Notes: generated from the letters alone by a model not told the origin. A stretch of DNA of 64,000 nt from a virus (IMGVR_UViG_3300025151_000016); one strand, 5' to 3'. Counted from the stretch's first letter, positions 25,281 to 64,000 are shown. A program made the numbers and translations.

Positions 25281-25605
25281 AGGTTTCGCCCGTTTCTCTA
25301 AAAAAGTTTTCACTCCAAAAAGCTTTATCATCTATCCATACATCATAGTGTTCTTTTTTACCAACACTTAATTCGTGAAACTTTGCACCCCATTTAATTA
25401 ATTGATTGTTTGTCAGGTTATAATAGTCCACACCACTTACAGCGCCACGAGCTGTCATGTATTTAATTGTATGTCCAGCATCGTATAATTTATTAATCTT
25501 AGCAATGCGTTCTGGCATTGGTTCATGTAATGCGTAATCCTTTGTGCCGTCTGGCTTCATTACTTCATTACAAATTGTTCCGTCAATATCTATAACGTAC
25601 TTCAC
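25273..25605 (-). CDS. HAD phosphatase (capsule-biosynthesis type)
   Basis: DIDGTIC; TARG; K..YD.WIDDKA. Confidence 0.8.
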   Translation of the reverse strand: MKYVIDIDGTICNEVMKPDGTKDYALHEPMPERIAKINKLYDAGHTIKYMTARGAVSGVDYYNLTNNQLIKWGAKFHELSVGKKEHYDVWIDDKAFWSENFFRETGETYE

Positions 25606-25781
25606 TTAGTCACCTCTTCTTTCCTTGCATACTTTATATCGCAATATCCGCAAATAACATAATGTCCATCATGCGGTATTTTAAGATAAACTTTTGGATG
25701 ATCCATGTTATCTCCGCTACACGCTACGCTATCGCCATCTATGTAAACGATGCGTTCTTCAAAGCCTTCGATCTTATCCAT
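25602..25781 (-). CDS. zf-CHCC zinc-finger protein (59 aa)
   Basis: Not in ORF track; VACSG...DHPKVYL......ICGYC. Confidence 0.75.
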   Translation of the reverse strand: MDKIEGFEERIVYIDGDSVACSGDNMDHPKVYLKIPHDGHYVICGYCDIKYARKEEVTK

Positions 25782-26592
25782 CGTTCGGCCAGTTTTTATT
25801 AACTGGTAAGTTCCATTCGCTTATTGGTTTATTTGTTATTTGCCATAATGCTTCTTCAGGCCAATCATCTGCAGTTCGAAACATTATATGAACTAACTTA
25901 GGATTCTCTCCTCTATTGTCACCAATCTTAGCGTTAGGATGCGAACCAACTTTATGCATGTAACAATTCCACTCGTTTGGCATTCTCATTAGTTTAAAAT
26001 TTGGTAAATGAATAAACGCTGAAAAGTAATCTTGAAACAATCTATAAAAGTTAGGAAACCCATGTACTGTGTTTACATACTCTTGAAAGGAAGGCCATTC
26101 CGTTTTCATCTTTTGTAAACCTTTTTTAGATATAACTACAACACCGGTGTTAAATACTTCTGGTCTATCTTTGTCGTCTGTAGGATACTTGATACCCCAT
26201 GTTTTTTCACAGAGCCATGCCCATCGTTTATCAATAACACTATTGATTCCACCAGAGTTATATATTGTCCTGAAATAAGGTTGCTTTGGTTCTGTACAAA
26301 TACCAGCATCTTCTCCATTTAACATAAACAGATCGTCGGTAAGTCCTTCTGTTGGAAAGACGTCTATGTCAACTAAAGCCACGTTATCATACTTATCAAA
26401 AGATTTATCAACTAAAGGATTAGCCGGTTCGTAGTAAATAGGAACATTCACAGTTTTACTTGCAATCTCAATGTTATGATCAAATCTATATTCAGCACCA
26501 ATACGATCCGCGTATTCTTTCATTAGTCTTGTAGAAGCTACAACACCAGGCTTCATAGGACCTTTCCAATATTGATATATTATGTTACCCAT
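25774..26592 (-). CDS. GT-A glycosyltransferase
   Basis: YADRIGAEY; DIDVF; FNTGV; QD; WN; H. Confidence 0.7.
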   Translation of the reverse strand: MGNIIYQYWKGPMKPGVVASTRLMKEYADRIGAEYRFDHNIEIASKTVNVPIYYEPANPLVDKSFDKYDNVALVDIDVFPTEGLTDDLFMLNGEDAGICTEPKQPYFRTIYNSGGINSVIDKRWAWLCEKTWGIKYPTDDKDRPEVFNTGVVVISKKGLQKMKTEWPSFQEYVNTVHGFPNFYRLFQDYFSAFIHLPNFKLMRMPNEWNCYMHKVGSHPNAKIGDNRGENPKLVHIMFRTADDWPEEALWQITNKPISEWNLPVNKNWPNDG

Positions 26593-27605
26593 TTGTTTCT
26601 CCTGATAAATTTCTTTGCTGTTTGCAAAGATGAGTTAATAGCCTGATGCATATCAATGTACACATACATTCCACATCTTCCAATAAAAGTCATCTTAGGA
26701 TTGTTATATTGCTTGGCTGCATATTTTCTATATATGCCCGCATTAACGCCAGTATTATCTTTGACCGGATAAAACCTTTCATAATTATTTTCTTTATAGT
26801 CACACGGCTCTTCTGCAGTAAGCGTAGTCATACTAGAGTTGGTACCATGAAAAGGATAGTTCTTCCATTCTGTAATTCTGGTGTAAGGACCATCATGTGT
26901 AAAGTTTACGGTGGGTACAGGTAAAACTTTATTCAACGGTAAATGTGTATGATGAAACTTTATAGATCTATATGGCAGTTCACCGTATTCATAATCATAA
27001 TAAACATCAATTGGCATTGAGTTAAATACATGATCATAAAGTTCTTCCATCTTCTTATCGAATGGTGTGTTCAAATGTACAATTATATTTTGGTGGTTTA
27101 AAATACTATTGAACAAAGTTGTATAACCATACAGTGGCATTACTTGATATTCATCATCTGGAAAGTACAATTCGTTATCATCATCACGTATAGGTATTCT
27201 TTTTGAAATACTACTATCTAAATCTTCTAGTTCCATTCCCCACATCTTTTTAGTGTAAGGTTTGTAAAAAGTATCTATGACATTTTCTTCGCCAACAATT
27301 TCTTTTGTTTCATTATTGACTGGTAAAGTAACATACCGACCATCAGAAAGTTGTGCCTTTACTTTATGCTTGTATTCACCGAACTTACCATACAATGTTA
27401 TCCAGTCATATACTCTTTTATTATTTGTATGAAATATATGTGGTCCGTACTTGTGAACTCTTATACCGTGTTCGTTTTCATAATCATATGCATTACCACC
27501 TACATGATCTCTTTGATCTATTACACATATCTTGTGGCCAGCTTCTGCTAACTCACGAGCAATCGTAGCTCCAGCAAAACCCGCACCTACAACTAATATA
27601 TTCAA
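26580..27605 (-). CDS. glf: UDP-galactopyranose mutase
   Basis: GAGFAG; GGNAYD; HKYGPHIFHT; YT.K.WG; LPYRS; TRITEWK; YP; GR...Y.Y.DM. Confidence 0.95.
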   Translation of the reverse strand: MNILVVGAGFAGATIARELAEAGHKICVIDQRDHVGGNAYDYENEHGIRVHKYGPHIFHTNNKRVYDWITLYGKFGEYKHKVKAQLSDGRYVTLPVNNETKEIVGEENVIDTFYKPYTKKMWGMELEDLDSSISKRIPIRDDDNELYFPDDEYQVMPLYGYTTLFNSILNHQNIIVHLNTPFDKKMEELYDHVFNSMPIDVYYDYEYGELPYRSIKFHHTHLPLNKVLPVPTVNFTHDGPYTRITEWKNYPFHGTNSSMTTLTAEEPCDYKENNYERFYPVKDNTGVNAGIYRKYAAKQYNNPKMTFIGRCGMYVYIDMHQAINSSLQTAKKFIRRNKWVT

Positions 27606-28273
27606 AGTACACCTTCGTCTACTAACTGTTGATAGTTTTCCATCTTATCACGCTTTGGTCCTTGAGGAGTAATCTTAGTACGTATATGAATAAAGCCAGC
27701 TTTTTCTGGATTAGGAAGAAAACTACACTGGCACCATTTCGGATCCAAGTGAGTTTTTCTCCAGTTAATACCTGCTCTTAGAGCTAACACATGAAAGATA
27801 CCTTCATCTTCAAAGTGATATGGCAAATTAAAGTTTTCCATCCATGTGTTTGGAGGAGTGTTTGCTTCTCTTAAAGCTACTCTTAATTTCTTATTCATTT
27901 TATATATTGCACCTCCCCAATAAGGAGATCGAGAAGATGAGATTAAAGGATACTGCTGTACTATCTTTTTATGTAACATCTTCTGTACAGTATGATACAT
28001 CCCAACACCTTGTTCTTCAAAGATATTAATAGTCATACCTTTGGGTGCAAACATATCAATGTCTACCATTAGTACATCATCGTACTCGTCAAACTCTTTT
28101 GAGATCATCTGTACTTTTTGGCACGGTGCTGTTAGTCTTCGATTGAAAGGTTTGCCAGTAATAAGTTTATATTCAGCTCCAATCATATCAGCATACTCTT
28201 GCATGTTCGCCATCGAGAGTTTATCTAACGGCCGCAGCTCGCCATCAAAGTGTTGTAGTACAATATTTACCAA
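27602..28273 (-). CDS. GT-A glycosyltransferase (GT34-like)
   Basis: YADMIGAEY; MVDIDMF; DEG. Confidence 0.65.
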   Translation of the reverse strand: MVNIVLQHFDGELRPLDKLSMANMQEYADMIGAEYKLITGKPFNRRLTAPCQKVQMISKEFDEYDDVLMVDIDMFAPKGMTINIFEEQGVGMYHTVQKMLHKKIVQQYPLISSSRSPYWGGAIYKMNKKLRVALREANTPPNTWMENFNLPYHFEDEGIFHVLALRAGINWRKTHLDPKWCQCSFLPNPEKAGFIHIRTKITPQGPKRDKMENYQQLVDEGVL

Positions 28274-28866
28274 GGTTTACTTGCCTCTATAACAGCAGAG
28301 TGTAACTTACGTATCAAGCCTGGAGTATCAATGCCATTGAAGTCTCTTACTCCAGATTTTCCATAAGGCATTTCTTGTACGTTTTTAAAACCAAGTTCGG
28401 TAAGTGTTTCTAACATTTCTTTCTTATACCAAAGATGTTTATGTTCACCGCCTTGATATAAAAGTCCTTCAGCACACTGAAGTTGTTTGGACAAGTGTTC
28501 AGTTCCAGCTGGAGCAAACTTATGTTTCAAGATATAGAACTGATAGTAATGCTGTACAAAAGGATGCTCATCTAAGTTTTGATCTTGTCTAAGAAAGTCT
28601 ACAAAATCCATAGGAGGCCACACGGTACGAATGATACCGCCCGGCTTCATTACTCTATACATCTCTTTAAAGAAACTTATGCCTTCATCTTTTTCAAGGT
28701 GCTCAATAAAGTGTTCGCTATAGACTGCATTATACTGTGCATCCATAACTCCCTTCATTGGAAGCTTACGCATGTCATATACCATACAGCCAGGAGTAGG
28801 TACATCTCGTACACTATCCCAATTCAATCCTCTGTTTTCGTTTGGGGCGATTTCTAAATATCTCAT
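28267..28866 (-). CDS. SAM methyltransferase (type 11-like)
   Basis: YSEHFIEHL; E.YRVMKPGG..R...P. Confidence 0.8.
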   Translation of the reverse strand: MRYLEIAPNENRGLNWDSVRDVPTPGCMVYDMRKLPMKGVMDAQYNAVYSEHFIEHLEKDEGISFFKEMYRVMKPGGIIRTVWPPMDFVDFLRQDQNLDEHPFVQHYYQFYILKHKFAPAGTEHLSKQLQCAEGLLYQGGEHKHLWYKKEMLETLTELGFKNVQEMPYGKSGVRDFNGIDTPGLIRKLHSAVIEASKPW

Positions 28867-29648
28867 ACTACCAATTCCATTAGTCGCTCAATGTCTTCTC
28901 CTTCATTAGGAATTAAATCTTTATGAAAGAAATGTAAGAAGTGAGCTTGTTGCATCTTCTCATGTGGTATAGCATTGAATAAGCCATTCCACTTCCAATG
29001 AAGATGTTTTTGTTTCATCTTTTCTTCTTTTACCCAAGTATTTAAAAGTGTTTGGTCCGTAGACCATTTCCACGCGCCTAGTCCATCAATGAATCCTTTA
29101 AACTTTGCACGCATCAAGAACTCTCGTGGAGTTTGACCACGTAAATACTTTGCAATGTTTTTACTCATTAACATCATGCCCATATTATAAAACTCAGCAC
29201 CATGTTGATTCCACTTCCAATCAACGTGCTTTAATGATCCATATTGCATATGGGAATAGTTTGTAATTTTGTCGAAGTATCTTGGAGTTAGTGGCATCTG
29301 TCTTTCTATAACACCAGCAAATTCAGTGTCTTCATCTAACTCGTCAAACAGGTTAGGACTGTTTGGTCTAATCCATATATCACCATCTACAATTGCAATC
29401 TGATCATAACGATCAAAGTATGCAAATGCATTTTCTTTTTCATATATCGGTAGAAAGCCACCATGTTTACCATAGGACTCTTTACTACGATTAGTAGCAA
29501 ATACATCTGGTTTGATTCTTAGGATAGGTTCTCTTTGTATAACATGATCAATGCCATGTTCTTTACAGTAAGTAGCGACAGATTTTGTGCAGTGGTCGTA
29601 TAATCTTTTACGAGGTCCTGTGTATACCTGATAAATTAGTCTCTTCAT
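28863..29648 (-). CDS. GT-A glycosyltransferase (GT8/GT34-like)
   Basis: DGDIW; YNMG; DQTLLN; WN; HF. Confidence 0.75.
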   Translation of the reverse strand: MKRLIYQVYTGPRKRLYDHCTKSVATYCKEHGIDHVIQREPILRIKPDVFATNRSKESYGKHGGFLPIYEKENAFAYFDRYDQIAIVDGDIWIRPNSPNLFDELDEDTEFAGVIERQMPLTPRYFDKITNYSHMQYGSLKHVDWKWNQHGAEFYNMGMMLMSKNIAKYLRGQTPREFLMRAKFKGFIDGLGAWKWSTDQTLLNTWVKEEKMKQKHLHWKWNGLFNAIPHEKMQQAHFLHFFHKDLIPNEGEDIERLMELVV

Positions 29649-30584: not shown

Positions 30585-30832
30585 TAGATTTTTTCCTGTC
30601 CGAAGTTGCGAGTGTTTTCAATTTCAGAAGCGAATTGATCGTATCCGCCTATGTGTCTATCATTCCAAAATATTTGAGGAACCGTTCGTGCTCCTGGAAC
30701 TAATGCACTTAGTTCCTGCATTTTTTCTGGTCCATCAATTAGAATGTATTCGTATTTGAGTTCATGCTTTTCTGCAAGTGACTTTGCTCTGTCACACCAT
30801 GAGCATCTTGGTCCACCCCAAATTGTTATCAT
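30584..30832 (-). CDS. nrdC: glutaredoxin
   Basis: CSWC; RTVPQIF; HIGGY; start trimmed to MITIWG. Confidence 0.9.
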   Translation of the reverse strand: MITIWGGPRCSWCDRAKSLAEKHELKYEYILIDGPEKMQELSALVPGARTVPQIFWNDRHIGGYDQFASEIENTRNFGQEKI

Positions 30833-31530
30833 TAATCGTATCCTAACATTTCTTTTGTCATAATATAATCTCTCACCATTCCTGATCTTACAATATCGTC
30901 CCAACCAAACTGTATGATTGAAAAGTTTTTCATTTGTTCTAAGATAGCCATAAACTTAAATAAGCCATCCTTTTCATCTTGAAACTTAAAGTCAGATTGT
31001 TTATAATCACCGCAAAATATAATCTTACTGTTACGTCCTACTCGTGTAATAACTGTATCAAGTTCATGGAACGTAAGGTTCTGCATCTCATCAACAATAA
31101 TAATAGAATCATCAAACGTGGATCCACGAATAAATGATGTGGATTCAAATTCAATTTGTCGAGCTGTTGTGAGTTTGTTATAAGCTCCTACATCACCAAA
31201 GAGTTCAGCACAAATATTCTTGTACGGAATATTGTACATGTCCTTTTTTTCTTCTGCAGTACCTGGAAGAAATCCAATGTCTCTTGTTGGTACAACAGAT
31301 CTAATTATTACAATACGACGGAAAAAAGAATCTGAATCAAGAAGTTCTTCTAACGCCATATAAAGAGCTATAAAGGTTTTACCTGTGCCTGCAGTTCCAG
31401 CTAAGACCAAATTATCGTCATCTTCCCACGATTCAAAAGCAATCTTTTGATTCTCAGTAATAGGTTCATACTCTAACAAATCATCAATGCGAACTGTAAG
31501 AGAGTTGTTCTTACTTAAACGTTTACTCAT
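30832..31530 (-). CDS. phoH: PhoH-like ATPase
   Basis: GTAGTGKT; IGFLPG; FIRG; DEMQN; TRVG; GD..QSD; DIVRS. Confidence 0.95.
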   Translation of the reverse strand: MSKRLSKNNSLTVRIDDLLEYEPITENQKIAFESWEDDDNLVLAGTAGTGKTFIALYMALEELLDSDSFFRRIVIIRSVVPTRDIGFLPGTAEEKKDMYNIPYKNICAELFGDVGAYNKLTTARQIEFESTSFIRGSTFDDSIIIVDEMQNLTFHELDTVITRVGRNSKIIFCGDYKQSDFKFQDEKDGLFKFMAILEQMKNFSIIQFGWDDIVRSGMVRDYIMTKEMLGYD

Positions 31531-32445: not shown

Positions 32446-33300
32446 TTAAATAAAGTCCTCAATATCTTCAATCAATCTTTTACATCGTTTAGCCACTAGG
32501 TAAGGAAAGACCTTGCCTTTATTATCATGCGTATCTTGGCTTTCAAATGTATTTATAATTTCACTTTTTAGAGCATCAGGTGTTTCATTTAAATCAATTA
32601 ATTTTTTGTTACGTAAAAAATTACGATATATTTCTTGTCCTTGTGATTCAGGATTTTCTATTAATTGATCCAATAACTTTTGTCGAAGAGGTGTTTGACG
32701 TGTACCTTCTACAAATACATTGTCACCAGACAAGACATTAGGTACGCCATCGGATGTATCGCCTCTTAGAATAAGTTCCATTAACTGTTTCCTAGGATGT
32801 TCTATTTTTATATATTTCTTTGTCATAGGAGAATACTGTGACACATTGTCAAATTTCTGCAATTGTGCAAAATCTTTATCAGCAGATATAATCATAACTT
32901 TTTCGTATTGACCAAACTCCTGTGTGTTGTAACAAAGCTGGCCAATAATATCATCAGCTTCGCATCCATCGATCTTTAATGTTTTATAGGGGAAGTGTTC
33001 GCCAAGTTCTTCAAACACTAGATTGGTGATACGAAATACTTCGTCCCAATCCATACTTGATTTCTTCCGGCCAATCTTACGAGCTGCTTTGTAATTAGGA
33101 AATGCTTTGTAACGCCAGTTGTTACCTGCGTCAGAGGTGATAACAACTTCACCAAAGTCTTTATGAAAACGTTTACGGTACATACGAATACTATTCAGAA
33201 TCATATGCCTGATAAGGTTTTCATCTATGTCAAGCTTTTGAGTAACAATGTTTCCAATAGCTATTCCATTATAATCAATAATAATCATTACAAACTCCAT
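32446..33300 (-). CDS. rnh: T4-type RNase H (5'-3' exonuclease)
   Basis: WR...P.YK..R; EADDII; SADKDF.QL; GD.SDGVPN. Confidence 0.93.
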   Translation of the reverse strand: MEFVMIIIDYNGIAIGNIVTQKLDIDENLIRHMILNSIRMYRKRFHKDFGEVVITSDAGNNWRYKAFPNYKAARKIGRKKSSMDWDEVFRITNLVFEELGEHFPYKTLKIDGCEADDIIGQLCYNTQEFGQYEKVMIISADKDFAQLQKFDNVSQYSPMTKKYIKIEHPRKQLMELILRGDTSDGVPNVLSGDNVFVEGTRQTPLRQKLLDQLIENPESQGQEIYRNFLRNKKLIDLNETPDALKSEIINTFESQDTHDNKGKVFPYLVAKRCKRLIEDIEDFI

Positions 33301-34407: not shown

Positions 34408-34808
34408 GTTCTATTTCCTCTAAGTGCAAAGAACAATCCACCTACCCATAAGAATACGTGTAAATTGTCGTATAAAATAACATCCATAAAACTATCGGGC
34501 TGGCCTACCCATATAACTCCTGTCATAATACTACAAATTGTAATACCACTAAACCGAGTTATAATATCATTAATTTCTTTTAGCTTCTGCCATATGACAG
34601 CGCCACCTACAAGCAAGCCTATACCAGCACCGATCTCACCGTATGCCGCGAACCACCACACAATATAAGGCAAGTCAAAACTTTCAGCGCCTTCTACTGT
34701 TACGGGTAATTTACTAAAGCCTTGTTGTAAAAACACAATTGCCAAAGGTATTCTTATGAGCCAATGACTCATACAAAAATCAGGTATTTTATTAGAAAGT
34801 AATTTCAC
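34404..34808 (-). CDS. DoxX family membrane protein
   Basis: RIPL...F..QG..K; E...G..L..G; TR. Confidence 0.7.
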   Translation of the reverse strand: MKLLSNKIPDFCMSHWLIRIPLAIVFLQQGFSKLPVTVEGAESFDLPYIVWWFAAYGEIGAGIGLLVGGAVIWQKLKEINDIITRFSGITICSIMTGVIWVGQPDSFMDVILYDNLHVFLWVGGLFFALRGNRT

Positions 34809-37017
34809 AGGCGCCTCCTACGCATGCTGCAGAACCAAGTGTGTCTACATCTACATATTTTTTAGTTTCAAGTTGAGAAGCAAAATCTACTGGAGCAAGG
34901 TTCTGTTGAATCTTAGTCCATTTGTGTAAAAGGAACACGTCCTTCAAGCAATACTCAGCTTCTTTTGTATCGCTCATAAAATAATTATCCGCAAACTTTT
35001 TAAAACGACGAATCCACTCTGCACGAATATCAGAAACTTCTCCATGGTTATCATCTGGTAGTTGTGCTATAGAAGTGGCTTCCCATAAGTCGTTGAATCC
35101 TTTGCGTGTATCTACAATTAAGCCAGCAGCAAATAATGCAGCCTTGCCATATTTATTCACTATCTGTTCTTCGGTCAAGACTTCTGTCATAGGTGCTTGA
35201 TTAAAGTCTTTATCACCTGATCCACCAAGGAAAGATATACCAGCATATGCACCACGATTTTCAAAAACATAGTCTTCTACTTCACGCCACTGGTGATCCA
35301 TGACTGTTACAGTATTTGAAACATTATGGCGTAACTTAGGATGTGCACATAGCTTTTCGTTTGTTCCAAACTCTACCCAGTTATTTTGTACTGTGCTTAC
35401 TTTTTCTAAAAGCTTGGTGCCATATAGTTCTTCGCGATATAGTGAACCTTCTGGTGAGATAACAGGAAACGCAACAACATAGTCAGTTTTACCTGCAGAC
35501 CATACTGATTCTTCTACCATGTAAGGATTTGTCTCAGCAATTAGTTGTGAAACTTCTGATTCCTTATTTAATTGCACGTGTCGTAGGTAACGTGGTGAGT
35601 GTTCTGAGTGAATGCCAGAGGCAGTCTGCAACAGCACAGAAGCATTGCCAGAAGGTTTAACGCAGGTAGTACGAGCTGCTTGATTAATACCAATCAACTC
35701 AGCAACATCTTTATTGACTTGCTTTACGATCTCTGCACCTTGTCTTTGAATCTCTTCATCAAAAAGAACTTCAGGATTATTCATCCATCCTGTGATAGAA
35801 ACACCAAGTAATGCTTCACGCTCGAAGATCTTACGTGTTGTGTTTGATACATATTCAAATTTAGTATAACCCGCTTGGAGTGTGCCAAGAATAGCAGCAG
35901 CACGACATGCTTTGAAAAACTCTTCTTTGCTTGTACACTTGCCGCCATTGATTTCTGTGAGGTTACAACCCTGCCAGCCAGACTTACCATTGAGTTGTGG
36001 GTACATCCCAATCTCAACACATGGGTTTGTAGTAAAGTCTTTGTCCTCAACGAAATAAAAACCTGGTTCGCCAAACTCTTTGATTGATGTCATGAGATTA
36101 GAGAACTCTTCCTTTGTAACTTCTTTACGAACAATGACAGCTGAGTTGTTTGAACGACCACGTTGTGGATTATCAATAAACCAGTTACCTGTTTTTGCTT
36201 TCATCATTTCTTCATCATCAGGTGAGAATAAACAAATTGTTGCTGAACGACGAACACCACCTGATAATACAGCATCAGCAGCATGCATAGCAATATCATA
36301 TACTTCAATTGGTTTTAATGTATTACGACCTGATAGAACAATACCTTGTAACATATGTTCAATCTTATCTAATGTACGACGTAATGGTTCTGGTCCTGGA
36401 GCTTTGAAGCCACCAGAAATCATAGCACCTTTTGGACGAATCGCTGATAAGTCAAAGTAAATCTTACGGCCTTCAAATTCTGGATGAGTACCGCCACCTA
36501 CAAAATAAGAAGACATTAGAACTGAAAGAGAATCTGCCCAACCTTCGATTGAATCTTCTATATTAAAACCTTTTGCCTGCTTCTTACGTTCTTGTAACTT
36601 AGGCATCTTTTCAACGTGATGTTTTTGTACAGAGAATCCAGCACCTGCACCACAAAGTAAAATATAAAATAGCTCACCAAAGAATGCAGCGCGGTCTGCA
36701 TATGTTGAAGTACAGTTGTACATCTTCATAGGTTTCTTGAGTAGTTGCTCACCACCAAACTGAAGAGCACGTTGTGCACCAAGAGCATACTTTAATTTGT
36801 AAAGGGATTCAGCTTCATCAATTAGCTGTGATAGTTCAGGAGACATTCTCTTTTTATAATAGGTACGATGCATACCCATAACACGAGTAACTGCTTCTTC
36901 CCATGTTTCGTATCGCTCGTTATCTTCATCCCATCTACTATAACCTTCATAAAATTTAGTATCAGACATCATGGCACGTGTATTTCTGTCTGGATTGTTT
37001 GGGATAAGTTTGAGCAT
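34792..37017 (-). CDS. nrdJ: class II (B12-dependent) monomeric ribonucleotide reductase
   Basis: NC; GVRRSA; TNPCVEI; CNLTEIN; TCVKPSG; GISFL; C-terminal C.GGAC; no YY pair and no adjacent beta subunit. Confidence 0.8.
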   Translation of the reverse strand: MLKLIPNNPDRNTRAMMSDTKFYEGYSRWDEDNERYETWEEAVTRVMGMHRTYYKKRMSPELSQLIDEAESLYKLKYALGAQRALQFGGEQLLKKPMKMYNCTSTYADRAAFFGELFYILLCGAGAGFSVQKHHVEKMPKLQERKKQAKGFNIEDSIEGWADSLSVLMSSYFVGGGTHPEFEGRKIYFDLSAIRPKGAMISGGFKAPGPEPLRRTLDKIEHMLQGIVLSGRNTLKPIEVYDIAMHAADAVLSGGVRRSATICLFSPDDEEMMKAKTGNWFIDNPQRGRSNNSAVIVRKEVTKEEFSNLMTSIKEFGEPGFYFVEDKDFTTNPCVEIGMYPQLNGKSGWQGCNLTEINGGKCTSKEEFFKACRAAAILGTLQAGYTKFEYVSNTTRKIFEREALLGVSITGWMNNPEVLFDEEIQRQGAEIVKQVNKDVAELIGINQAARTTCVKPSGNASVLLQTASGIHSEHSPRYLRHVQLNKESEVSQLIAETNPYMVEESVWSAGKTDYVVAFPVISPEGSLYREELYGTKLLEKVSTVQNNWVEFGTNEKLCAHPKLRHNVSNTVTVMDHQWREVEDYVFENRGAYAGISFLGGSGDKDFNQAPMTEVLTEEQIVNKYGKAALFAAGLIVDTRKGFNDLWEATSIAQLPDDNHGEVSDIRAEWIRRFKKFADNYFMSDTKEAEYCLKDVFLLHKWTKIQQNLAPVDFASQLETKKYVDVDTLGSAACVGGACEITF

Positions 37018-37101
37018 GTATATTCTCCTAGAAAACAGTATAAAAAAAATACAACACGCGAAATGCATGCTATATGTTGTTAGTCATTTTTTGTTGATAG
37101 T

Positions 37102-55411: not shown

Positions 55412-55559
55412 GTCTCCTCATAATTTTCATTCGTTCGTTGTAATGCATTCTCGGCCACTTACTTATTTCTTCTTGAGTTCTACCACAACCAACACATTCT
55501 TTTGTTTTTCTATCAATTCGACATATCTGTACGCATGGTGTTACGTACATCAATCCCAC
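55371..55559 (-). CDS. DUF1289 Cys-rich protein
   Basis: TPC..IC.......C.GC.RT..EI..W. Confidence 0.8.
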   Translation of the reverse strand: MGLMYVTPCVQICRIDRKTKECVGCGRTQEEISKWPRMHYNERMKIMRRLGYGKRRQRSRIR

Positions 55560-56035
55560 CTACCAGTCCAGACATAAAAGACATGTAGTCCAATAATCTT
55601 ACTTACGCTCAAAGATTTTTCTTTATTCCAAAACGGATCTACATAATTAGCGTGATAGAATGTAGCTCCATGTGATGGATCTACAGTGTTACCAATTATA
55701 ACGTCACGTGCTATAACCATAGCTCTATCCCAAGCACGTTTTTCTCGAGGCGTATGGTCCTTTACAAGGAACGTCCAACTGAATTGTTTGTACTGATAAA
55801 CAACATCACATATATTATCAGGAAAATGCGCGTGATTAACACGATTCATAGTTACGTGTGCCACAGCAATTTGTCCTTCTATCCTTTCGCTTCTTGCTTC
55901 ATGATAGACGTTCATTGCCAGACAGTTTTGCTGTTTTGGATCTACTTCAGGTAGACCAAGCATAGCGATGCTAAATAAGCCTGCTGTTATACTCATAGTG
56001 ATTAACCCACTTGTTATAGAAATAAATCTGTTCAT
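55550..56035 (-). CDS. SleB-like cell wall hydrolase (Hydrolase_2)
   Basis: CLA.NVYHEAR.E; AVA.V..NRV; QFSW; GATFYHA.YV.P.W; IG.H.FY. Confidence 0.92.
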   Translation of the reverse strand: MNRFISITSGLITMSITAGLFSIAMLGLPEVDPKQQNCLAMNVYHEARSERIEGQIAVAHVTMNRVNHAHFPDNICDVVYQYKQFSWTFLVKDHTPREKRAWDRAMVIARDVIIGNTVDPSHGATFYHANYVDPFWNKEKSLSVSKIIGLHVFYVWTGRWD

Positions 56036-56653: not shown

Positions 56654-56833
56654 ATGTGGGTATTGCTATGGGTACAGTTAATGGCAACACAAAATGTAAA
56701 TCACTTTCATATTGGTAATTATTCAAAAGAAGTAGACTGCCAGTCGGCTATGAGTGCCGCTGCTGTTTTAGTTACTAGTAAAAATGAAAGCGTTGCTTGC
56801 TTGTACGTAGATATTAATGACATTAGAAATTAG
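56654..56833 (+). CDS. small secreted 2-Cys protein (59 aa)
   Basis: Not in ORF track; MWVLLW...; abuts the upstream stop codon. Confidence 0.55.
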   Translation: MWVLLWVQLMATQNVNHFHIGNYSKEVDCQSAMSAAAVLVTSKNESVACLYVDINDIRN

Positions 56834-58017
56834 ATAAAAGCTTCCAAAGTATTAGGAGCCTTTTCAATATTGTATGATCGAGTCTTGTTATCTTGCAAGA
56901 CATACTCTGCTTCGATCATTTGCAAGTCACCACCTAAAAATCTTTTTACATTTTCTGCCATGTCCATTGCTGTCGTAACAGGCACGTTCTGACATATCAT
57001 ATTTAAGTTCTTTAGTCCTCCTTGTAATATAAAGTCTTTTGGCATCTTCATTATATCCAATGCTTCGCGAGTATTGATATAACGATCTTCATCGGGGTGG
57101 CATAAGGTATGAGGGAAGTGACCAACGAAAGCACCAATACGATCTTTTCCTATCTCAGTCATCTTTCTCATTATATTTCCACCAGCCGATAACTTATCAA
57201 ACATATAGTTACACTTCTCAGAAAGCTTCTGGTGACCCCTTTCTGCCATCCAAACGCCCACATCCTTATAAGATACACCTTTATCTTCAATATAGTGTAA
57301 AGGATTAGTTGTCTTTTCAATTAGTTGAAAGAACTCAGGATGAGTAATTCCACCATGCATTTCTTCTAGTACGTATTGATAGTAAGGATTGTCCGAAGGT
57401 TTCTGTTTGCTATTCACCTGTTCAAACATTGGATCTGGTTCGTTTGTAGCAGATGAACGAATCTGATCTTCGATCTTAGTGTATGGTCGATTGTAATACG
57501 ATAAGATTGGTACAGAGTTTCCTTTCCAAAAGAAATAGAATGATCTATCTCTAACCTGGCTTAATCCGTGGAGGATTGATTTGGTTTTGTAGATGGAGAA
57601 GACGTAACCGTTTCTTCTTCCGATTTCTCTAAGTTTTGCCACAACTGGTTCTCCCATTCGACTAGCGAGCCGTGGAGCATTTTCACCCCAGAACACAGTT
57701 GGTTGGATGGATTCGAGCACATACTCGGCAGACTTGACCATCCAATCATTAGTATTACTATCACCGCTGCTAGTAGGACTAAGTGAAGAAAGCCCCGCAC
57801 AAGGGCAGACAGTATTGACCACATCCACTCTGCTAGGAGCAGTGTCCCCTTTATCAAGCAGTAGATAAGGAATATTATTATTATAATAGTTAAGAAGTTG
57901 GCTATCATTTGCTGTAAAATCCGTGTAAGAGAGGATGTATTCGGGTCGTTTCCCGAATACGTTTTCCATTGCTATTGTTTCACCTCCTATGAGAGGAACA
58001 ATACTTGCATAATTCAT
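56830..58017 (-). CDS. C5-cytosine DNA methyltransferase-like protein (divergent)
   Basis: PC (VCPCAGLS), EN (GENA), Q.R.R; motif I degenerate (PLIGG). Confidence 0.65.
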   Translation of the reverse strand: MNYASIVPLIGGETIAMENVFGKRPEYILSYTDFTANDSQLLNYYNNNIPYLLLDKGDTAPSRVDVVNTVCPCAGLSSLSPTSSGDSNTNDWMVKSAEYVLESIQPTVFWGENAPRLASRMGEPVVAKLREIGRRNGYVFSIYKTKSILHGLSQVRDRSFYFFWKGNSVPILSYYNRPYTKIEDQIRSSATNEPDPMFEQVNSKQKPSDNPYYQYVLEEMHGGITHPEFFQLIEKTTNPLHYIEDKGVSYKDVGVWMAERGHQKLSEKCNYMFDKLSAGGNIMRKMTEIGKDRIGAFVGHFPHTLCHPDEDRYINTREALDIMKMPKDFILQGGLKNLNMICQNVPVTTAMDMAENVKRFLGGDLQMIEAEYVLQDNKTRSYNIEKAPNTLEAFI

Positions 58018-58970
58018 TAATTCACCTTGTAATAATCTTTGTACCAAGTGACAAATTTTTCCACGCCATCAGCAATAGGTGTTGTTGGATTATAACCTAA
58101 TTTCTGGAGTTTAGTCGTATCTGACCATGTGGCTGGAGTATCTGCCGGATGTGCTTCACAAGGATTACGTATTGCTGTGCGACCAAGGTTCTTTTCAATA
58201 TGATCTACAAAATCAAGTAACTCTACTTGTTGTCCATATCCGATATTATATATCTCATGATAACTATCACTATCTGTGACAACTTTATCTATCACTAGGC
58301 TTATGCCATGAACAATATCTTCAACGTAAGTAAAGTCACGTTTCATATCACCAAAGTTATATAAGTCAATTGGTTTACCTTTTATAATATTATCAGTAAA
58401 CTTAAACAGCGCCATGTCAGGTCTTCCATAAGGACCATACACAGTAAAGAATCGTAAGCCAGCGGTACGTTTAATTTTTGAATGACCAAACTGACATTCG
58501 TTTACTTTTTTAGACCAGCCATAAGGGTTGTTTTGATTTTCAGGTTTATCAACTTCATTCCAAGGTAACGGCTGTCCATGCATTACACATGATGATGAAG
58601 CATATACTACAGGAATATTGAGTCCTTCGACTTCCAATGCTTCGACGATACGCTGTGTACCAGTAATGTTTGTGTCAATATAGTGCTGTGGTTCGTCCAT
58701 AGCGTGACGTGGATTTGCATATGCTGCAAGGTGTAAGACTACGTCCACGTCATCAAATAATTTCTTATCAGGATGAATGTCTTGAATATCGAGTTGTAAC
58801 GTATCAACTCCATAGTCTTCTCTTAATATTCTTGCTCTTTCTCTTTTTAGTTCTACATCGTAGTAGTCATTAAAATTATCTACTCCTACTACTTGGTGTC
58901 CTCTTGCTGCATAGTATATTGCAGAGTGGAAGCCTATCATGCCGGCTTGGCCTGTGATAAATATTTTCAT
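58017..58970 (-). CDS. NAD-dependent UDP-glucuronate 4-epimerase-like SDR
   Basis: GQAGMIG; DNFNDYYD..LK..R; HLAA; ASSS; Y...K; LRFFTVYGPYGRPDMA. Confidence 0.88.
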   Translation of the reverse strand: MKIFITGQAGMIGFHSAIYYAARGHQVVGVDNFNDYYDVELKRERARILREDYGVDTLQLDIQDIHPDKKLFDDVDVVLHLAAYANPRHAMDEPQHYIDTNITGTQRIVEALEVEGLNIPVVYASSSCVMHGQPLPWNEVDKPENQNNPYGWSKKVNECQFGHSKIKRTAGLRFFTVYGPYGRPDMALFKFTDNIIKGKPIDLYNFGDMKRDFTYVEDIVHGISLVIDKVVTDSDSYHEIYNIGYGQQVELLDFVDHIEKNLGRTAIRNPCEAHPADTPATWSDTTKLQKLGYNPTTPIADGVEKFVTWYKDYYKVN

Positions 58971-60214
58971 ACGAAAAATTCCTCGAGTCCTTGTGGTTGG
59001 TTGCTAGTAGTGTTCAAAGCGAGATCGATAATTTCTTTCACAACCATTTCTCCATCGGAGTGTTGCTTCCAAAATTCAAACGCCATCTCTCTCCAATCAT
59101 CTCTCATCGCAGGATCATTTTTAAGTTTGACCATTTGGTCGCGGCACTCATTAAAGTTAGTATAGTCAACGCCTAGAGTGCCAGAGTTTTGACATTGACT
59201 AATTGGTTTACCTTGTACAGGATGAATTACATTATCACAAAAGTGTTTGTGAAATAACGGTACTGTACCTGAAGCTATACATTCGGCGTGGCAATTTTCT
59301 ATATTGTTACCATAGTGTTCTGCTTTTAAAAAGTATAAGTCAGAACCAAATGCTGACCGTGACATACGATCCATAGCTTCTGAGTTTATATATTGTGGAT
59401 AAAGGTATGCACCTTTGCCTTCAACTTCTTTGCCATACAAATCAGGTGTAAACTTAACTTCATTAAATTGTTTCTCAGGTCTGAAATGATTTTCTACAAT
59501 TCTACGATCTGTAGGATTGTCTGATTTATTATCACGATATAAGACTAAAGGATATTGTATAGAAGCTTCTAGTCCTTCCAACACAGTGATAAATCCTTGT
59601 TCCATCAAAGCATCTTGATGGAAGTCAATCATAACACTTGGTCCTTTCCACATAGCAGTACGGCCAATCCATCTTACCATGTTGTGTTGTTGTTCTTCAA
59701 TAGGACGCCAGTACTTTGCACGGTGTCCATCATAATCAAAGCCAAGTCCCATCTTTGTAAGTGGAGTTTCAATCTTGTTTTTTCTCATAAACTTACAGAA
59801 ATCATTTTCCATACTATGAGTCATAATAACATCTACATTTTCGCATACTTCTTTTAAGTTAGCATTACGTGCAATGGATGCTGCTTTATGATCTACGTTA
59901 ATAAACGCTTTACGAATATTAATATGTTTAAGAAACGGAATAAAATTATCCTGGCATTCTTGAGGATGACTCTTTGAAGGTACTGAATATATGATACACA
60001 AATCAAAATATTCATTAATCCAATTGGCATTTATCTCCCATTCATTTGCCATTGAGAATTCTTTTTGCTTTATATCTAATCCTTTGGCTCTACCCCATTT
60101 TTTATCAGTAGCAGATAAGATATGAGCACCCGTTACTTTTTGCATTTGTATTGCACACTGTGTAACACCGCAACCTTCAGTGCCGCGACCAAGGACAATT
60201 GCAATTCTAGTCAT
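58967..60214 (-). CDS. a-gt: DNA alpha-glycosyltransferase (T4 a-gt homolog)
   Basis: RGTEGCGVT (T4 RGLEGCGVT); SVP; RWIGRT..WKG; E..H.E....GT.P.F. Confidence 0.85.
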   Translation of the reverse strand: MTRIAIVLGRGTEGCGVTQCAIQMQKVTGAHILSATDKKWGRAKGLDIKQKEFSMANEWEINANWINEYFDLCIIYSVPSKSHPQECQDNFIPFLKHINIRKAFINVDHKAASIARNANLKEVCENVDVIMTHSMENDFCKFMRKNKIETPLTKMGLGFDYDGHRAKYWRPIEEQQHNMVRWIGRTAMWKGPSVMIDFHQDALMEQGFITVLEGLEASIQYPLVLYRDNKSDNPTDRRIVENHFRPEKQFNEVKFTPDLYGKEVEGKGAYLYPQYINSEAMDRMSRSAFGSDLYFLKAEHYGNNIENCHAECIASGTVPLFHKHFCDNVIHPVQGKPISQCQNSGTLGVDYTNFNECRDQMVKLKNDPAMRDDWREMAFEFWKQHSDGEMVVKEIIDLALNTTSNQPQGLEEFFV

Positions 60215-60611
60215 TAATAAATTCCTTACATTCAATTAAAACATTATGTACGTATTTATGATCGTTTAACTTACGATTTCTAGGGGAAGGATGTGGTAAG
60301 ACAAAGTGATCTTCGAAACCAAGACGTTTCAAATAGCTCGATACCATTGAACCCCATACAACTATCTTATCATAGTTTTTAAGACTTGTACATAATAAAG
60401 TGTGATCAAAAGTCTTAAATTTAAAATCCCATTCAGGATCAAATGATAAGTTAGTGAAGGAGACATGTGTGAGGTCCAGTTGATCTAACCAGCTATGAAA
60501 TCTTTTGTACGCAGATCCCTTTGCCTTACTCACTGCTACCTTTGAAGGATTCATTCCAACAAAGATAATTCTAGACCGAAACGAATTCATATTCAATTCC
60601 AGCTTCTTCAA
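60207..60611 (-). CDS. uracil-DNA glycosylase superfamily protein
   Basis: FVGMNPS; TNL; LPHPSPRNR. Confidence 0.7.
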   Translation of the reverse strand: MKKLELNMNSFRSRIIFVGMNPSKVAVSKAKGSAYKRFHSWLDQLDLTHVSFTNLSFDPEWDFKFKTFDHTLLCTSLKNYDKIVVWGSMVSSYLKRLGFEDHFVLPHPSPRNRKLNDHKYVHNVLIECKEFIND

Positions 60612-61014
60612 ACATAGCTGAAGTTAAAGCAAATGATTCAACCCAATGCTCAGGTATTTCCTGATTAGGCATAACCACACGTTTAACACCAACTTGAATT
60701 ACGCCTTTAGCGCAATCAGAACAAACAGGTAAACCCCACACGTATAATGTAGATCCATCAAGTGATACACCATTATATGTAGCGTTGTATATTACATTCT
60801 GTTCTGCATGAACAACATACCTGTACTTAATTTTCTTGACAGCGTATCTATTCAAATCATCTTTTATACCACGAGGAAAGCCATTGTATCCTTGAGCAAG
60901 TACCTGCCCTTTCTTTCCTATAGCAACAGCACCAATCTTAGATGACGGGTCCTTTGACCAAGTGCTTACTTCCTTTGCTAATCCTAGGTATCTTATATCC
61001 CATTTATTTGACAA
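60571..61014 (-). CDS. cd: dCMP deaminase
   Basis: SKDPS.K.GA; GYNG; HAE.N; P.C..CAK. Confidence 0.92.
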   Translation of the reverse strand: MSNKWDIRYLGLAKEVSTWSKDPSSKIGAVAIGKKGQVLAQGYNGFPRGIKDDLNRYAVKKIKYRYVVHAEQNVIYNATYNGVSLDGSTLYVWGLPVCSDCAKGVIQVGVKRVVMPNQEIPEHWVESFALTSAMFEEAGIEYEFVSV

Positions 61015-61690
61015 GGTGAAAGTGCCTTTCATATACATGCAAGTTTTGTACTTGCCACATAATCATACCGGGTTGAAGTCCTTCATAGCTGTGGGCATGT
61101 CGATCAATTCTGTTTATGTTATCACATAGCAATGAGAGTACATGCATTTGCCAGGCATAATCATTCTTATAACCAAACACTACATCATTCGAACGCATTT
61201 GAACTACAGCGTTAAGTACATCATCACGAATGTAATAGCTCACAGCGTTTGTACATATGAAATCATTCTTTTCGTTTTCATTGTATTCTAGCCAGACAGA
61301 AGGACGATTGTATACCATTGTAGCTCTACGTCCATCAGGATTTTCAATTAACTCATCAAGGACATGACCATACTGTTGGTGGTACTTATCAGACCAGATA
61401 AGATGACCATAGTTTGAATTAATTTCACCGTGTTTATTTGCTGCGTATTGCCAAGCTTGTGGAACACTTTCACCAATATCATTTACGTTTGTGGATTGAC
61501 TTTCATACCAATCTAATTCTTCTTGAATATAATCATAGTTTGGCGAACCAAAGATAGCAGGCTCATCAGCAACAAACGATGCACCAATCAGTTCAATAGT
61601 TTTTTGACCGGTTCTATCGATTGTAAATGCTTCATCATTGAGTTCACCAATAAAGAACTGGCGAATATCATGTACACTATGTAGTTTCAT
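61004..61690 (-). CDS. 42: dCMP hydroxymethylase gp42
   Basis: TIEL.GASF; E..WY; NSNYG; DFICT; MRSNDVVFGYKNDYAWQ; LHVYERHF. Confidence 0.9.
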   Translation of the reverse strand: MKLHSVHDIRQFFIGELNDEAFTIDRTGQKTIELIGASFVADEPAIFGSPNYDYIQEELDWYESQSTNVNDIGESVPQAWQYAANKHGEINSNYGHLIWSDKYHQQYGHVLDELIENPDGRRATMVYNRPSVWLEYNENEKNDFICTNAVSYYIRDDVLNAVVQMRSNDVVFGYKNDYAWQMHVLSLLCDNINRIDRHAHSYEGLQPGMIMWQVQNLHVYERHFHLVK

Positions 61691-62030
61691 TTTTTACTCG
61701 CTTTGGACGATTTAGAAAGTCACGATCAGGATCTTGGCCATCAATACCATTATTCATATATGCAGCAAAGAATGAAGCATAGTTAATAATATCAATGCAT
61801 GAATCTTCGAGGCTTTCAAAGTTTGGTTCGTAATTTGGATCAGATTCCATTGCTTCGAGTACTGATTGCATGCGTAACACTTTTGCATACATTGTATCAA
61901 GAAGAGTTGAACAACCTCTAGGGTAATACATTGCTTGTTGTATTCTAGAGCTTGGGTTCTGGTAATCATTACCTTTTCTGTTTTGTACTTCTGCAGCTTT
62001 CTGCAAAACTTTAAGTGATTCTTTACTCAT
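61677..62030 (-). CDS. nucleotide-modification-associated helical protein
   Basis: K..DY; K..R; FES.EDS..D..NYA; adjacent to gp42. Confidence 0.65.
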   Translation of the reverse strand: MSKESLKVLQKAAEVQNRKGNDYQNPSSRIQQAMYYPRGCSTLLDTMYAKVLRMQSVLEAMESDPNYEPNFESLEDSCIDIINYASFFAAYMNNGIDGQDPDRDFLNRPKRVKNETT

Positions 62031-62600
62031 TTATCTTGTACCTCTACCACGTATTTCACGGTTAACCTTAGGGCGAAAATGCTTGATGGAAGCACCTTCA
62101 ATATACTCAGCCATGCCATCAATATTGAATTGACTAGTATTAATATATTTTATAACAATTTCTAAAGATTGTAAACCATTTTCTGTGAGAAACTCTCTAA
62201 ATTTTCTACCAGATGATTCACTAATTACACTATCATCTAGAAAACTTCTTAGATGATTACCTTGGCGGCTATTGATGCTTGCAGATGGAGCGTCTGTTTT
62301 ACCAATATAAAGTGTATAAGGTCCTAATGTAACAAACCAACCGTATACACCTTTTGCTTTGCTTGCTGCAAAAGGAGCCGGTCCTCTTTGACCAGGAATT
62401 CTTTCAAGCTTCTTAGGAACTTCTAAAAATTCATAATCAAAATCTACATATGGAAGAGATTTGCCGGCAAAATCTGGTAGATCTCTTGGAGGCATATTCT
62501 TTTTATGTAAACGTATTTTTCCATAAACTTCAGCCTCATCCCATAATTTTTTAATATCAATCGAACTAAGCATTGATGCTAAATTATTTAATATAGACAT
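62031..62600 (-). CDS. GIY-YIG endonuclease (DenA-like candidate)
   Basis: GVYGWF......LYIGKT; R...H; E...I....P..N; start trimmed to MSIL. Confidence 0.6.
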   Translation of the reverse strand: MSILNNLASMLSSIDIKKLWDEAEVYGKIRLHKKNMPPRDLPDFAGKSLPYVDFDYEFLEVPKKLERIPGQRGPAPFAASKAKGVYGWFVTLGPYTLYIGKTDAPSASINSRQGNHLRSFLDDSVISESSGRKFREFLTENGLQSLEIVIKYINTSQFNIDGMAEYIEGASIKHFRPKVNREIRGRGTR

Positions 62601-62878
62601 TATCTGTAATCCCGAATGTATACGTCCCAATGCGTTGCATTTTCTTTTGGCGTATCTTTTGCCCAACGATGTAAACGTGGACCACGTGGTCTGCACCATA
62701 CACCTTGTGTAGGACGATCACGATTAATATCAAAGTATGGGGATTTGCGATAGTTCTTGATGAAGCTGTTGCGATAAGCAAGTAGTTCTTTAAGTCCAGC
62801 AATAGCAGGATCATCAAGAGTTTTAACCGTAAAACGATAATTTTCGGATGTACGATTTTTATAAGTTACATAAGCCAT
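62600..62878 (-). CDS. hypothetical early protein
   Basis: R.RGPR...DT....A...DVY. Confidence 0.65.
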   Translation of the reverse strand: MAYVTYKNRTSENYRFTVKTLDDPAIAGLKELLAYRNSFIKNYRKSPYFDINRDRPTQGVWCRPRGPRLHRWAKDTPKENATHWDVYIRDYR

Positions 62879-63638: not shown

Positions 63639-64000
63639 TTACAAACCTTTATCTAATTCCCCATGATTATCTTCATGGTTCGGTCCTACCCATCCATCAG
63701 GCTTCAATAGATCTGGTAGACCAAATGGATTAGGACGTCCTGGTTTTACGCCAACCTGTTTATTCATATTGGCTTTATATATCTCGTCCCAAGCTTTACT
63801 TGCATCAACATTGAATACATCAAGTGTACCGATAGCAAAAACACATAGATCAATCAAGCCATCTACAATTTCTTCTGAATTACCAGAGTTGGCAGCTTGC
63901 ATAGTTTCATGTAATTCTTCTTGACACATAAGCAAACGGAACATAAGGTACTTGTTCATAAGTACTTTATCATCTTTATTCTTTTCAAACCATTCATTGA
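63639..64000 (-). CDS. partial MazG/PRA-PH-like NTP pyrophosphohydrolase (candidate dCTPase)
   Basis: EE..E; E.VD.LID; ANM.K; KP.GW..P; start lies beyond the window. Confidence 0.75.
   Translation of the reverse strand, partial: NEWFEKNKDDKVLMNKYLMFRLLMCQEELHETMQAANSGNSEEIVDGLIDLCVFAIGTLDVFNVDASKAWDEIYKANMNKQVGVKPGRPNPFGLPDLLKPDGWVGPNHEDNHGELDKGL

Follow-up and report, generated by a model that had tools for sequence, protein, structure and literature searches.

A candidate operon for uronic-acid glycosylation of hydroxymethylcytosine in an uncultured marine T4-like myovirus

The 64,000-nucleotide (nt) stretch of viral DNA analysed here, IMGVR_UViG_3300025151_000016 (the window), contains at positions 56830-62030 an unbroken run of seven minus-strand genes with abutting or overlapping ends (Table 1). 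The run encodes homologs of the phage T4 dCMP hydroxymethylase gp42 and of the T4 DNA alpha-glucosyltransferase AGT, the latter coupled to a short-chain dehydrogenase/reductase (SDR) of the UDP-glucuronate (UDP-GlcA) 4-epimerase type. With moderate confidence, we read this operon as a cytosine hypermodification system of an uncultured marine T4-like myovirus, in which 5-hydroxymethylcytosine (hmC) would take the place of cytosine and would then receive an alpha-galacturonosyl group through the joint action of the AGT homolog and the coupled epimerase. The identities of the genes, their diagnostic residues, their synteny and the selection acting on them were observed directly in the window and its relatives.

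The pathway would start before replication, when the gp42-type enzyme is expected to turn dCMP into hydroxymethyl-dCMP (hm-dCMP), a MazG-like protein and a DUF1599 protein would probably remove dCTP, and a dCMP deaminase would feed thymidylate synthesis, so that phage DNA would be made with hmC instead of cytosine. Once the DNA has been replicated, the hydroxymethyl group would be glycosylated by the AGT homolog, which is related to the retaining GT-B glycosyltransferase (GT) of T4. The donor would most likely be UDP-alpha-D-galacturonate (UDP-GalA), produced locally by the epimerase whose translation is coupled to that of AGT; the product, alpha-galacturonosyl-hmC, would be an anionic DNA base. 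In most relatives, UDP-GlcA would be provided by a phage mini dehydrogenase encoded right after the epimerase. This gene is no longer adjacent in the sub-lineage of the window, and the source of UDP-GlcA would thus have to be the host or a gene copy at another place in the genome. We infer the identity of the donor, the linkage, the complete replacement of cytosine and any roles of the small UDG-like and the C5-methyltransferase-like proteins.

The coupling of AGT to the SDR is a constant feature of the related loci. IMG/VR contains at least 135 relatives of the window AGT, and we compared the best 80 loci plus 5 more divergent ones. The SDR gene directly follows the AGT gene in all 84 informative contigs (79 of the best 80 and the 5 divergent loci; the 80th ends inside AGT), at a spacing of 0-770 nt and mostly through an ATGA overlap. 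The pair stays together at AGT identities down to 51%, while the UDG-like (uracil-DNA glycosylase-like) gene and other neighbours are present in some loci and missing from others. A first-pass annotation of the window had suggested examining co-occurrence across genomes, and this comparison came out in favour of the coupling.

The SDR most closely resembles UDP-GlcA 4-epimerases. Its best PDB matches are 5u4q (245 bits), the Bacillus cereus enzyme BcUGAepi (6zl6, 141 bits) and MoeE5 (6kv9, 99 bits), the latter two being characterised UDP-GlcA 4-epimerases. The 5u4q structure was deposited under a generic dehydratase name, and we take this enterobacterial Gla/Uge-type enzyme to be a UDP-GlcA 4-epimerase; further enzymes with this activity are the Klebsiella Gla/Uge and plant GAE proteins. 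Lower scores were obtained with WbgU and WbpP (at most 83 bits), GalE (at most 70 bits) and UDP-GlcA decarboxylases (UXS, ~65 bits). The G7-x-x-G10-x-x-G13 motif, Ser126, Tyr150 and Lys154 (in the SDR's own numbering) are invariant in 80 sequences, and so are the residues S, S, C, T and R found at BcUGAepi positions T126, S127, S128, T178 and R185, along with the counterparts of Y149 and K153. The roles of these residues have been described for BcUGAepi, in which R185, for instance, holds the carboxylate of UDP-GalA (PMC7984243, PMC12338863). The window enzyme shares with BcUGAepi and MoeE5 the extended SDR architecture, the GxxGxxG motif, the S/T-Y-K triad, the FTVYGPxGRPDMA segment with T178 and R185, and the Ser/Thr residues gripping the carboxylate; unlike them, it is phage-encoded, carries Cys rather than Ser at position 128 and has an epimerase role that is predicted. 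Position 128 is also not the Glu of the decarboxylases.

Assignment of the SDR as a UDP-GlcA decarboxylase (UXS/ArnA), GalE, TviC/WbpP, dTDP-glucose dehydratase or heptose epimerase is disfavoured by the ranking of PDB scores combined with residues 128 and 185. An NCBIfam scan of the SDR returned only sub-threshold matches to other equivalogs, none of them a UDP-GlcA 4-epimerase model; relatives of the SDR carry the JGI label 'UDP-glucuronate 4-epimerase'. We therefore retain the description of the SDR as UDP-GlcA 4-epimerase-like given in the first-pass annotation, which the PDB ranking and the catalytic and carboxylate-binding residues support, and predict UDP-GalA as its product. The same annotation had the coupled epimerase supply a non-glucose donor, naming UDP-GalA or UDP-galactose. 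Comparative genomics and the active-site residues lend that proposal strong support and favour UDP-GalA over UDP-galactose, while the chemistry itself remains predicted.

What the first-pass annotation had missed is a truncated UDP-glucose 6-dehydrogenase, which has gone from its usual position in the window but lies between the SDR and the final gene, a C5-cytosine-methyltransferase (C5-MTase)-fold protein, in 67 of the best 80 loci; of the 84 informative contigs, about 70 have it behind the SDR. Because of this prevalence, the ancestral cluster is reconstructed as AGT, UDP-GlcA 4-epimerase, UDP-glucose dehydrogenase and MTase, which amounts to a predicted two-step route from UDP-glucose to UDP-GalA placed behind a DNA glycosyltransferase. 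The mini dehydrogenase (~271 amino acids (aa), PF03721 and PF00984, catalytic Cys in GGxCxPKD, here GGACFPKD) is predicted to act as a UDP-glucose dehydrogenase and occurs in at least 581 viral matches (for example, L003:10219-11034), usually just upstream of uvsX. It is absent from the slot after the SDR in the window and its closest relatives (L001, L005 and L008), as well as in L022 and L023, and in the dehydrogenase-less loci the SDR stop overlaps the MTase start. On the SDR tree, these loci branch from within groups that possess the dehydrogenase, indicating that the loss is derived. After the loss, the epimerase, AGT and MTase stay under purifying selection, with ratios of non-synonymous to synonymous substitution rates of 0.06-0.11 for the epimerase and 0.04-0.12 across the three genes. 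Where the dehydrogenase has been relocated (L036, a complete 146.6-kb genome belonging to one clade with this arrangement, and L127), it is still found within the hmC module, between DUF1599 and gp42; in L174 and L181, which share the MazG and Na/Pi genes of the window, it directly precedes uvsX.

The AGT homolog is a predicted DNA hmC alpha-glycosyltransferase. It shows 30% identity to T4 a-gt over 94% of its length and matches the T4 AGT structures with 155 bits (residues 10-405 aligned to T4 residues 4-399, E = 2.6e-44). Invariant in the window, T4, Klebsiella-phage and marine AGTs are 51 positions, including D115, H116, R192, K197, E313 and E318; the core pairs D115/H116, R204/K209 and E306/E311 (T4 numbering) are unchanged in the T4 and Klebsiella-phage enzymes, in the window homolog and in 71 marine relatives. 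The family, PF11440, corresponds to CAZy GT72. The genomic context argues for a donor other than UDP-glucose for this homolog, namely UDP-GalA.

Two further glycosyltransferase types are followed by the same SDR-dehydrogenase pair. One is a third AGT subfamily, 30-33% identical to both the window AGT and T4 AGT (L154, L176, L183 and L191). The other is the unrelated TET-associated glycosyltransferase (TAGT, PF20691), directly behind which the pair is found, followed by uvsX, in the marine myovirus contigs L143 (8026-8865 and 8918-10828), L150, L152 and L189; in the 177-kb record behind L143, which is 86% complete, no thymidylate-synthase homolog and no Tet/JBP gene were found. Phage C48C1, in which the pair accompanies a Tet/JBP oxygenase, is further evidence on this side. 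The invariant AGT-SDR synteny, together with the recurrence of the pair behind an unrelated DNA glycosyltransferase, argues for an epimerase that supplies DNA glycosylation with UDP-GalA.

Several observations weigh against galacturonosylation by the AGT homolog. To our knowledge, T4 AGT is the only characterised member of the family, and its donor is UDP-glucose. Enterobacterial Gla-type epimerases can also interconvert UDP-glucose and UDP-galactose. When the AGTs linked to an SDR were compared with the T4 enzyme and with podovirus AGTs that have no SDR, no clade-specific residue clearly marking carboxylate binding emerged; position 117, beside D115-H116, is occupied by Lys in every marine AGT and by Ser in T4, and the Lys recurs in the podovirus AGTs without SDR. 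Activity of the mini dehydrogenase is not assured, since PF03720, the UDP-binding domain normally present at the C-terminus, is missing; the protein aligns only to residues ~85-315 of ~445-aa enzymes and falls below all NCBIfam cut-offs. No dehydrogenase was detectable in the 64 kb of the window. Furthermore, the SDR-dehydrogenase pair occurs without AGT or gp42 in Phage C48C1, which has a Tet/JBP oxygenase, and in G006, and without AGT also in G005; neither a thymidylate-synthase homolog nor a Tet/JBP gene was found in the available 86% of the G006 genome.

Some of these points would be accommodated if the AGT homolog used a neutral UDP-hexose as T4 does (glucose or galactose, from the host or epimerised) and the SDR, with or without the dehydrogenase, served a glycan of the virion or host surface, the adjacency of the genes being an accident of the gp43-uvsX hypervariable region. 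AGT homologs ~53% identical to that of the window indeed occur in T7-like podovirus contigs (L122:6001-7197; L123-L125; with primase-helicase, PolA and exonuclease genes), which contain no SDR, dehydrogenase, MTase or gp42 within 6 kb of AGT. The window does possess a large glycan cluster with GT25 and UDP-galactopyranose mutase genes at 21-30 kb, for which the epimerase could work, and a survey of pelagimyophages assigned the UDP-glucose dehydrogenase and the glycosyltransferases of phages to the O-chain (PMC7029224). This explanation appears unlikely to us, because AGT and the SDR are adjacent, usually with overlapping stop and start, in all informative loci of the myovirus clade amid changing neighbours, because the glycan cluster is ~30-48 kb away and variable (the complete relative G002 has no mutase), because the relocated dehydrogenase remains inside the hmC module, and because the pair is also found behind TAGT. 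The service of the epimerase to the glycan cluster, which the first-pass annotation had held out as the alternative, is accordingly disfavoured. A thymidylate-synthase-family gene lies ~20 kb from the AGT homolog in the L122 record.

The sugar on the DNA could also be derived from a uronate without being a single galacturonate, that is, GlcA, a mixture of GlcA and GalA, a processed sugar or an oligosaccharide built up by other phage glycosyltransferases, which might add galactofuranose supplied by the phage mutase. We give this roughly the same low likelihood as a neutral hexose. L192 has the dehydrogenase and TAGT without a close epimerase, and L147, L148, L178 and L180 combine the dehydrogenase with a different SDR (~25% identity), arrangements that imply several donor types. 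Reconstituted metavirome pathways yielded two isomers of hexuronic-acid-hmC, one of them independent of the epimerase, plus di- and trisaccharides (bioRxiv 10.1101/2023.12.21.572611), and the DNA glycan of RL38J1 has been proposed to use a phage UDP-galactopyranose mutase (PMC13326640). In Phage C48C1 (L129:5584-9031), a mutase 58% identical to that of the window lies two genes downstream of the Tet/JBP oxygenase, and one may speculate that the glycan cluster of the window extends a DNA glycan instead of a surface glycan. Against such more complex products, the operon contains no second glycosyltransferase, and the epimerase is under purifying selection even without the dehydrogenase, so that its product, not UDP-GlcA, seems to be what is needed. 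Galacturonosyl-hmC remains the product that we favour.

Whichever sugar is attached, hmC is the predicted acceptor. The window hydroxymethylase matches T4 gp42 (structures 1b49/6l18) with 249 bits and ~55% identity, and Cys146, Asp143 (L143D), Asp169 and Asp177 (N177D) are invariant in 52 sequences (the window and 51 relatives); residues are given in Escherichia coli ThyA numbering, the column for 177 being marked by the D179N mutant in 6l18. In the published residue rules, N177D selects dCMP and L143D/E, which gives water access, goes with hydroxymethylation, whereas D169N marks the recently discovered 5-hydroxy-dCMP synthases of phages resembling RB69 (PMC13326640). Since Cys146 is kept and residues 143, 169 and 177 are those that these rules require, the product should be hm-dCMP, the same as that of T4 gp42. 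For a long time, annotations wrongly listed RB69-type enzymes as gp42 hydroxymethylases (PMC13326640), which raises the question of whether the window homolog makes 5-hydroxy-dCMP or hm-dUMP instead, with the sugar attached there. We consider this highly improbable: D169N is absent from all 52 sequences, Asp177 specifies cytosine, and the homolog is ~55% identical to T4 gp42. Thymidylate synthase, dUMP hydroxymethylase and 5-hydroxy-dCMP synthase are all rejected on the basis of residues 143, 169 and 177.

Most related loci have a MazG-like gene on the upstream side of the hmC genes; its product is a candidate dCTPase that may deplete dCTP and thereby leave hm-dCTP as the sole substrate. In most relatives, the DUF1599 gene is located just upstream of the hydroxymethylase. 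The dCMP deaminase is predicted to supply dUMP for thymidylate synthesis.

Hexuronic-acid-hmC has already been obtained in the laboratory: a phage glycosyltransferase with its partner epimerase (contig 57) produced it in E. coli (433 atomic mass units), and metavirome GT-A enzymes often need a partner epimerase (bioRxiv 10.1101/2023.12.21.572611). The suggestion in the first-pass annotation of a possibly undescribed glycosyl-hmC was consequently too strong, although the known route proceeds through a GT-A enzyme and a methyltransferase (MT)/TET pathway (bioRxiv 10.1101/2023.12.21.572611). The same bulk mining mentions neighbourhoods of GT-B, thymidylate-synthase homolog, deaminase and epimerase genes without characterising them (bioRxiv 10.1101/2023.12.21.572611). 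Our literature search found no description of a cluster of AGT, UDP-GlcA epimerase and gp42, or of galacturonosyl-hmC.

The window operon shares with T4 a homologous hydroxymethylase with the same active-site residues, a full-length AGT homolog, a dCMP deaminase and the predicted order of events, with hmC formed before replication and glycosylated on the DNA. It differs from T4 in the nucleotide-sugar epimerase (in relatives, also the UDP-glucose dehydrogenase) coupled to the transferase, the lack of b-gt, the MazG/DUF1599 pair in place of gp56, the extra UDG-like and C5-MTase-like genes and the marine host. Like the metavirome 'subclass II' pathways (C5-MT plus TET-like 5mYOX), it pairs a DNA glycosyltransferase with a sugar epimerase, on which the activity of the subclass II transferase depends (bioRxiv 10.1101/2023.12.21.572611). 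However, the subclass II transferase is a GT-A enzyme (JGT/TAGT-like) acting on hmC made post-replicatively by MT and TET, whereas the window has a GT-B enzyme of the T4 AGT type and would make hmC pre-replicatively by gp42; unlike subclass II, its ancestral cluster is also predicted to make its own UDP-GlcA. RB69, DLP3 and RL38J1, which carry arabinosyl- or hexosyl-5-hydroxycytosine (PMC13326640), likewise combine a thymidylate-synthase homolog, phage-encoded sugar-nucleotide supply and DNA glycosyltransferases near replication genes. Their synthases carry D169N and make 5-hydroxycytosine, whereas the window enzyme keeps D169, and their sugars come from ribulose-5-phosphate via UDP-arabinofuranose, or from a galactopyranose mutase, with no dehydrogenase or 4-epimerase involved.

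In its broadest form, the proposal would be that every cytosine of an abundant marine T4-like lineage is an anionic alpha-galacturonosyl-hydroxymethylcytosine, made by a self-contained dehydrogenase/epimerase/AGT path, that the uronate genes form a portable cassette captured by at least three unrelated or deeply divergent glycosyltransferase types, and that the invariant C5-MTase-fold partner acts on the modified base in a further, non-methylating step. We regard this full combination as doubtful, clearly more so than the operon-level reading given at the outset. If galacturonosylation is correct, a chemistry known to date only from reconstituted metagenome pathways would have a natural and widespread counterpart in this operon, ocean phages of a common group would have DNA decorated with negatively charged sugars, and a second donor specificity would be added to the AGT family. 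Such DNA would behave differently towards host nucleases, CRISPR and glycosylase defences, the charge balance of packaging would be affected, and so would the enzymes used in virome sequencing, with a possible bias in surveys. It would also offer a natural T4-related system for dissecting uronic-acid DNA glycosylation and its donor supply.

Table 1 Genes of the hmC module and other features of the window
Feature	Coordinates	Strand	Evidence or content
MazG-like all-alpha NTP pyrophosphohydrolase	63639-63959	-	PF01503, 36.7 bits; PHROG 671 (nucleotide pyrophosphohydrolase), 70.5 bits
Na/Pi-cotransporter-like fragment, 157 aa	63164-63637	-	PF02690, 58 bits; NF037997, above cut-off
Open reading frame (ORF) with GIY-YIG-like pattern in C-terminal half	62031-62699	-	Motif seen by eye in translation
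DUF1599 ('nucleotide modification associated domain 1') protein	61677-62030	-	PF07659, E = 0.005, under cut-off; PHROG 18404, 1485
T4 gp42-type dCMP hydroxymethylase (predicted hm-dCMP synthase)	61004-61690	-	PF00303, 56 bits; 249 bits to 1b49/6l18
dCMP deaminase, T4 cd-like	60571-61038	-	PF00383, 62.8 bits; PHROG 174, 140.7 bits
Minimal UDG-like protein, ~127-134 aa	60207-60611	-	Pfam UDG, 22.2 bits (cut-off 24.3); motifs GMNPS, HPSPRN
T4 AGT homolog	58967-60235	-	PF11440, 115.6 bits (cut-off 25); PHROG 2888, 242 bits
Extended SDR, UDP-GlcA 4-epimerase type	58017-58970	-	PF01370, 138 bits; PDB matches
C5-MTase-fold protein, last operon gene	56830-58017	-	PF00145, 45.4 bits (cut-off 22)
Cell-wall hydrolase	55550-56035	-	PF07486
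Ribonucleotide reductase	34792-37068	-	
T4-type RNase H	32446-33300	-	
PhoH	30832-31530	-	
Glycan cluster	21339-29648		Two GT25 genes, methyltransferase, aldolase-like gene, UDP-galactopyranose mutase

All genes that the first-pass annotation had listed in the run are present on the minus strand, with ends that abut or overlap, and its identifications of a gp42 dCMP hydroxymethylase, an a-gt homolog, a divergent C5-MTase and, nearby, a MazG-like NTPase agree with the family matches, the diagnostic residues of the hydroxymethylase, the full-length homology to T4 AGT and the catalytic motifs of the MTase. Two starts were amended: AGT likely begins with the ATG at 60214, and the MTase likely with the ATG at 58017 rather than the TTG at 58047. 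The stop of the UDG-like gene overlaps the AGT start (ATGACTAG), ATGA is common to AGT and the SDR, and the SDR/MTase junction reads TAATG. Promoter-like sites were no commoner in the window than in shuffled sequence, and the 8 terminator-like sites (3.8 expected) do not define the ends of the operon.

Assignment of the small protein encoded before AGT to the UDG family, as made in the first-pass annotation, is suggested by its motifs and fold matches, while its Pfam score lies under the cut-off and the structural matches are weak. Motifs A (GMNPS) and B (HPSPRN) are invariant in 15 relatives and resemble those of SMUG1/MUG-type enzymes (GMNP(S/G) and HPSPRN), from which the protein differs in being about half their size (~130 aa). 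A profile comparison with the PDB gave a marginal match (E = 0.014), and Foldseek searches with an AlphaFold model (mean predicted local distance difference test score, pLDDT, 79) returned almost exclusively UDG-superfamily structures among the top matches (UNG, D4, TDG, SMUG1 and UdgX), at E ~0.01 and TM-scores of 0.4-0.58. Sequence and structure, both marginal, point the same way, to a half-size member of the UDG fold. That the protein removes U or hmU is a reasonable guess; its gene is missing from some relatives.

The C5-MTase-like protein keeps PLIGG(E), CPCAGLS (motif IV), GENAP (VI), QVRDR (VIII, QxRxR) and QNVP (X) invariant in 53 sequences. Its S-adenosylmethionine motif I (FxGxG) is degenerate (VPLIGGE, with the first Gly out of register), and the Pfam match begins at profile position 57. 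In almost every AGT-type locus, the gene comes after the SDR or the dehydrogenase; it is also present in at least one gp42 cluster with a different gene in the AGT slot (L193), but not in TAGT-type clusters. Its substrate is puzzling, as C5 of cytosine should already be occupied, and a conserved C5-MTase-fold enzyme without obvious substrate in AGT-type clusters poses a clean biochemical question.

In another set of loci (L155:7974-9991, L153, L159, L160, L207 and L209), two conserved proteins are encoded between gp42/deaminase and dehydrogenase-SDR, in the slot otherwise held by AGT. One has ~300-330 aa (PHROG 13881 or 7093) and the other ~340-350 aa and no family. Pfam and PHROG searches gave no function for the 341-aa protein or its neighbours, and its AlphaFold model had a pLDDT of 44, too low to be of use. 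These proteins are candidates for a new DNA-modifying enzyme.

Upstream of the operon, the ORF at 62031-62699 displays a GIY-YIG-like pattern (GVYGW...LYIGKT...R...E...N), is poorly conserved in relatives and had no Pfam, PHROG or NCBIfam match. It is possibly a nuclease or homing endonuclease, of uncertain membership in the module. The Na/Pi-like gene adjoins the MazG-like gene on the side of the hmC module and, although far shorter than cellular transporters, is a real gene, as shown by its 88-98% conservation in L008, L174 and L181. The window is phage DNA: besides ordinary phage genes (Table 1), it encodes baseplate and tail proteins, and judged by a tail protein its closest record is that of the uncultured Phage C48C1 (30% identity), with PhiW-14 and Rhizobium phages next.

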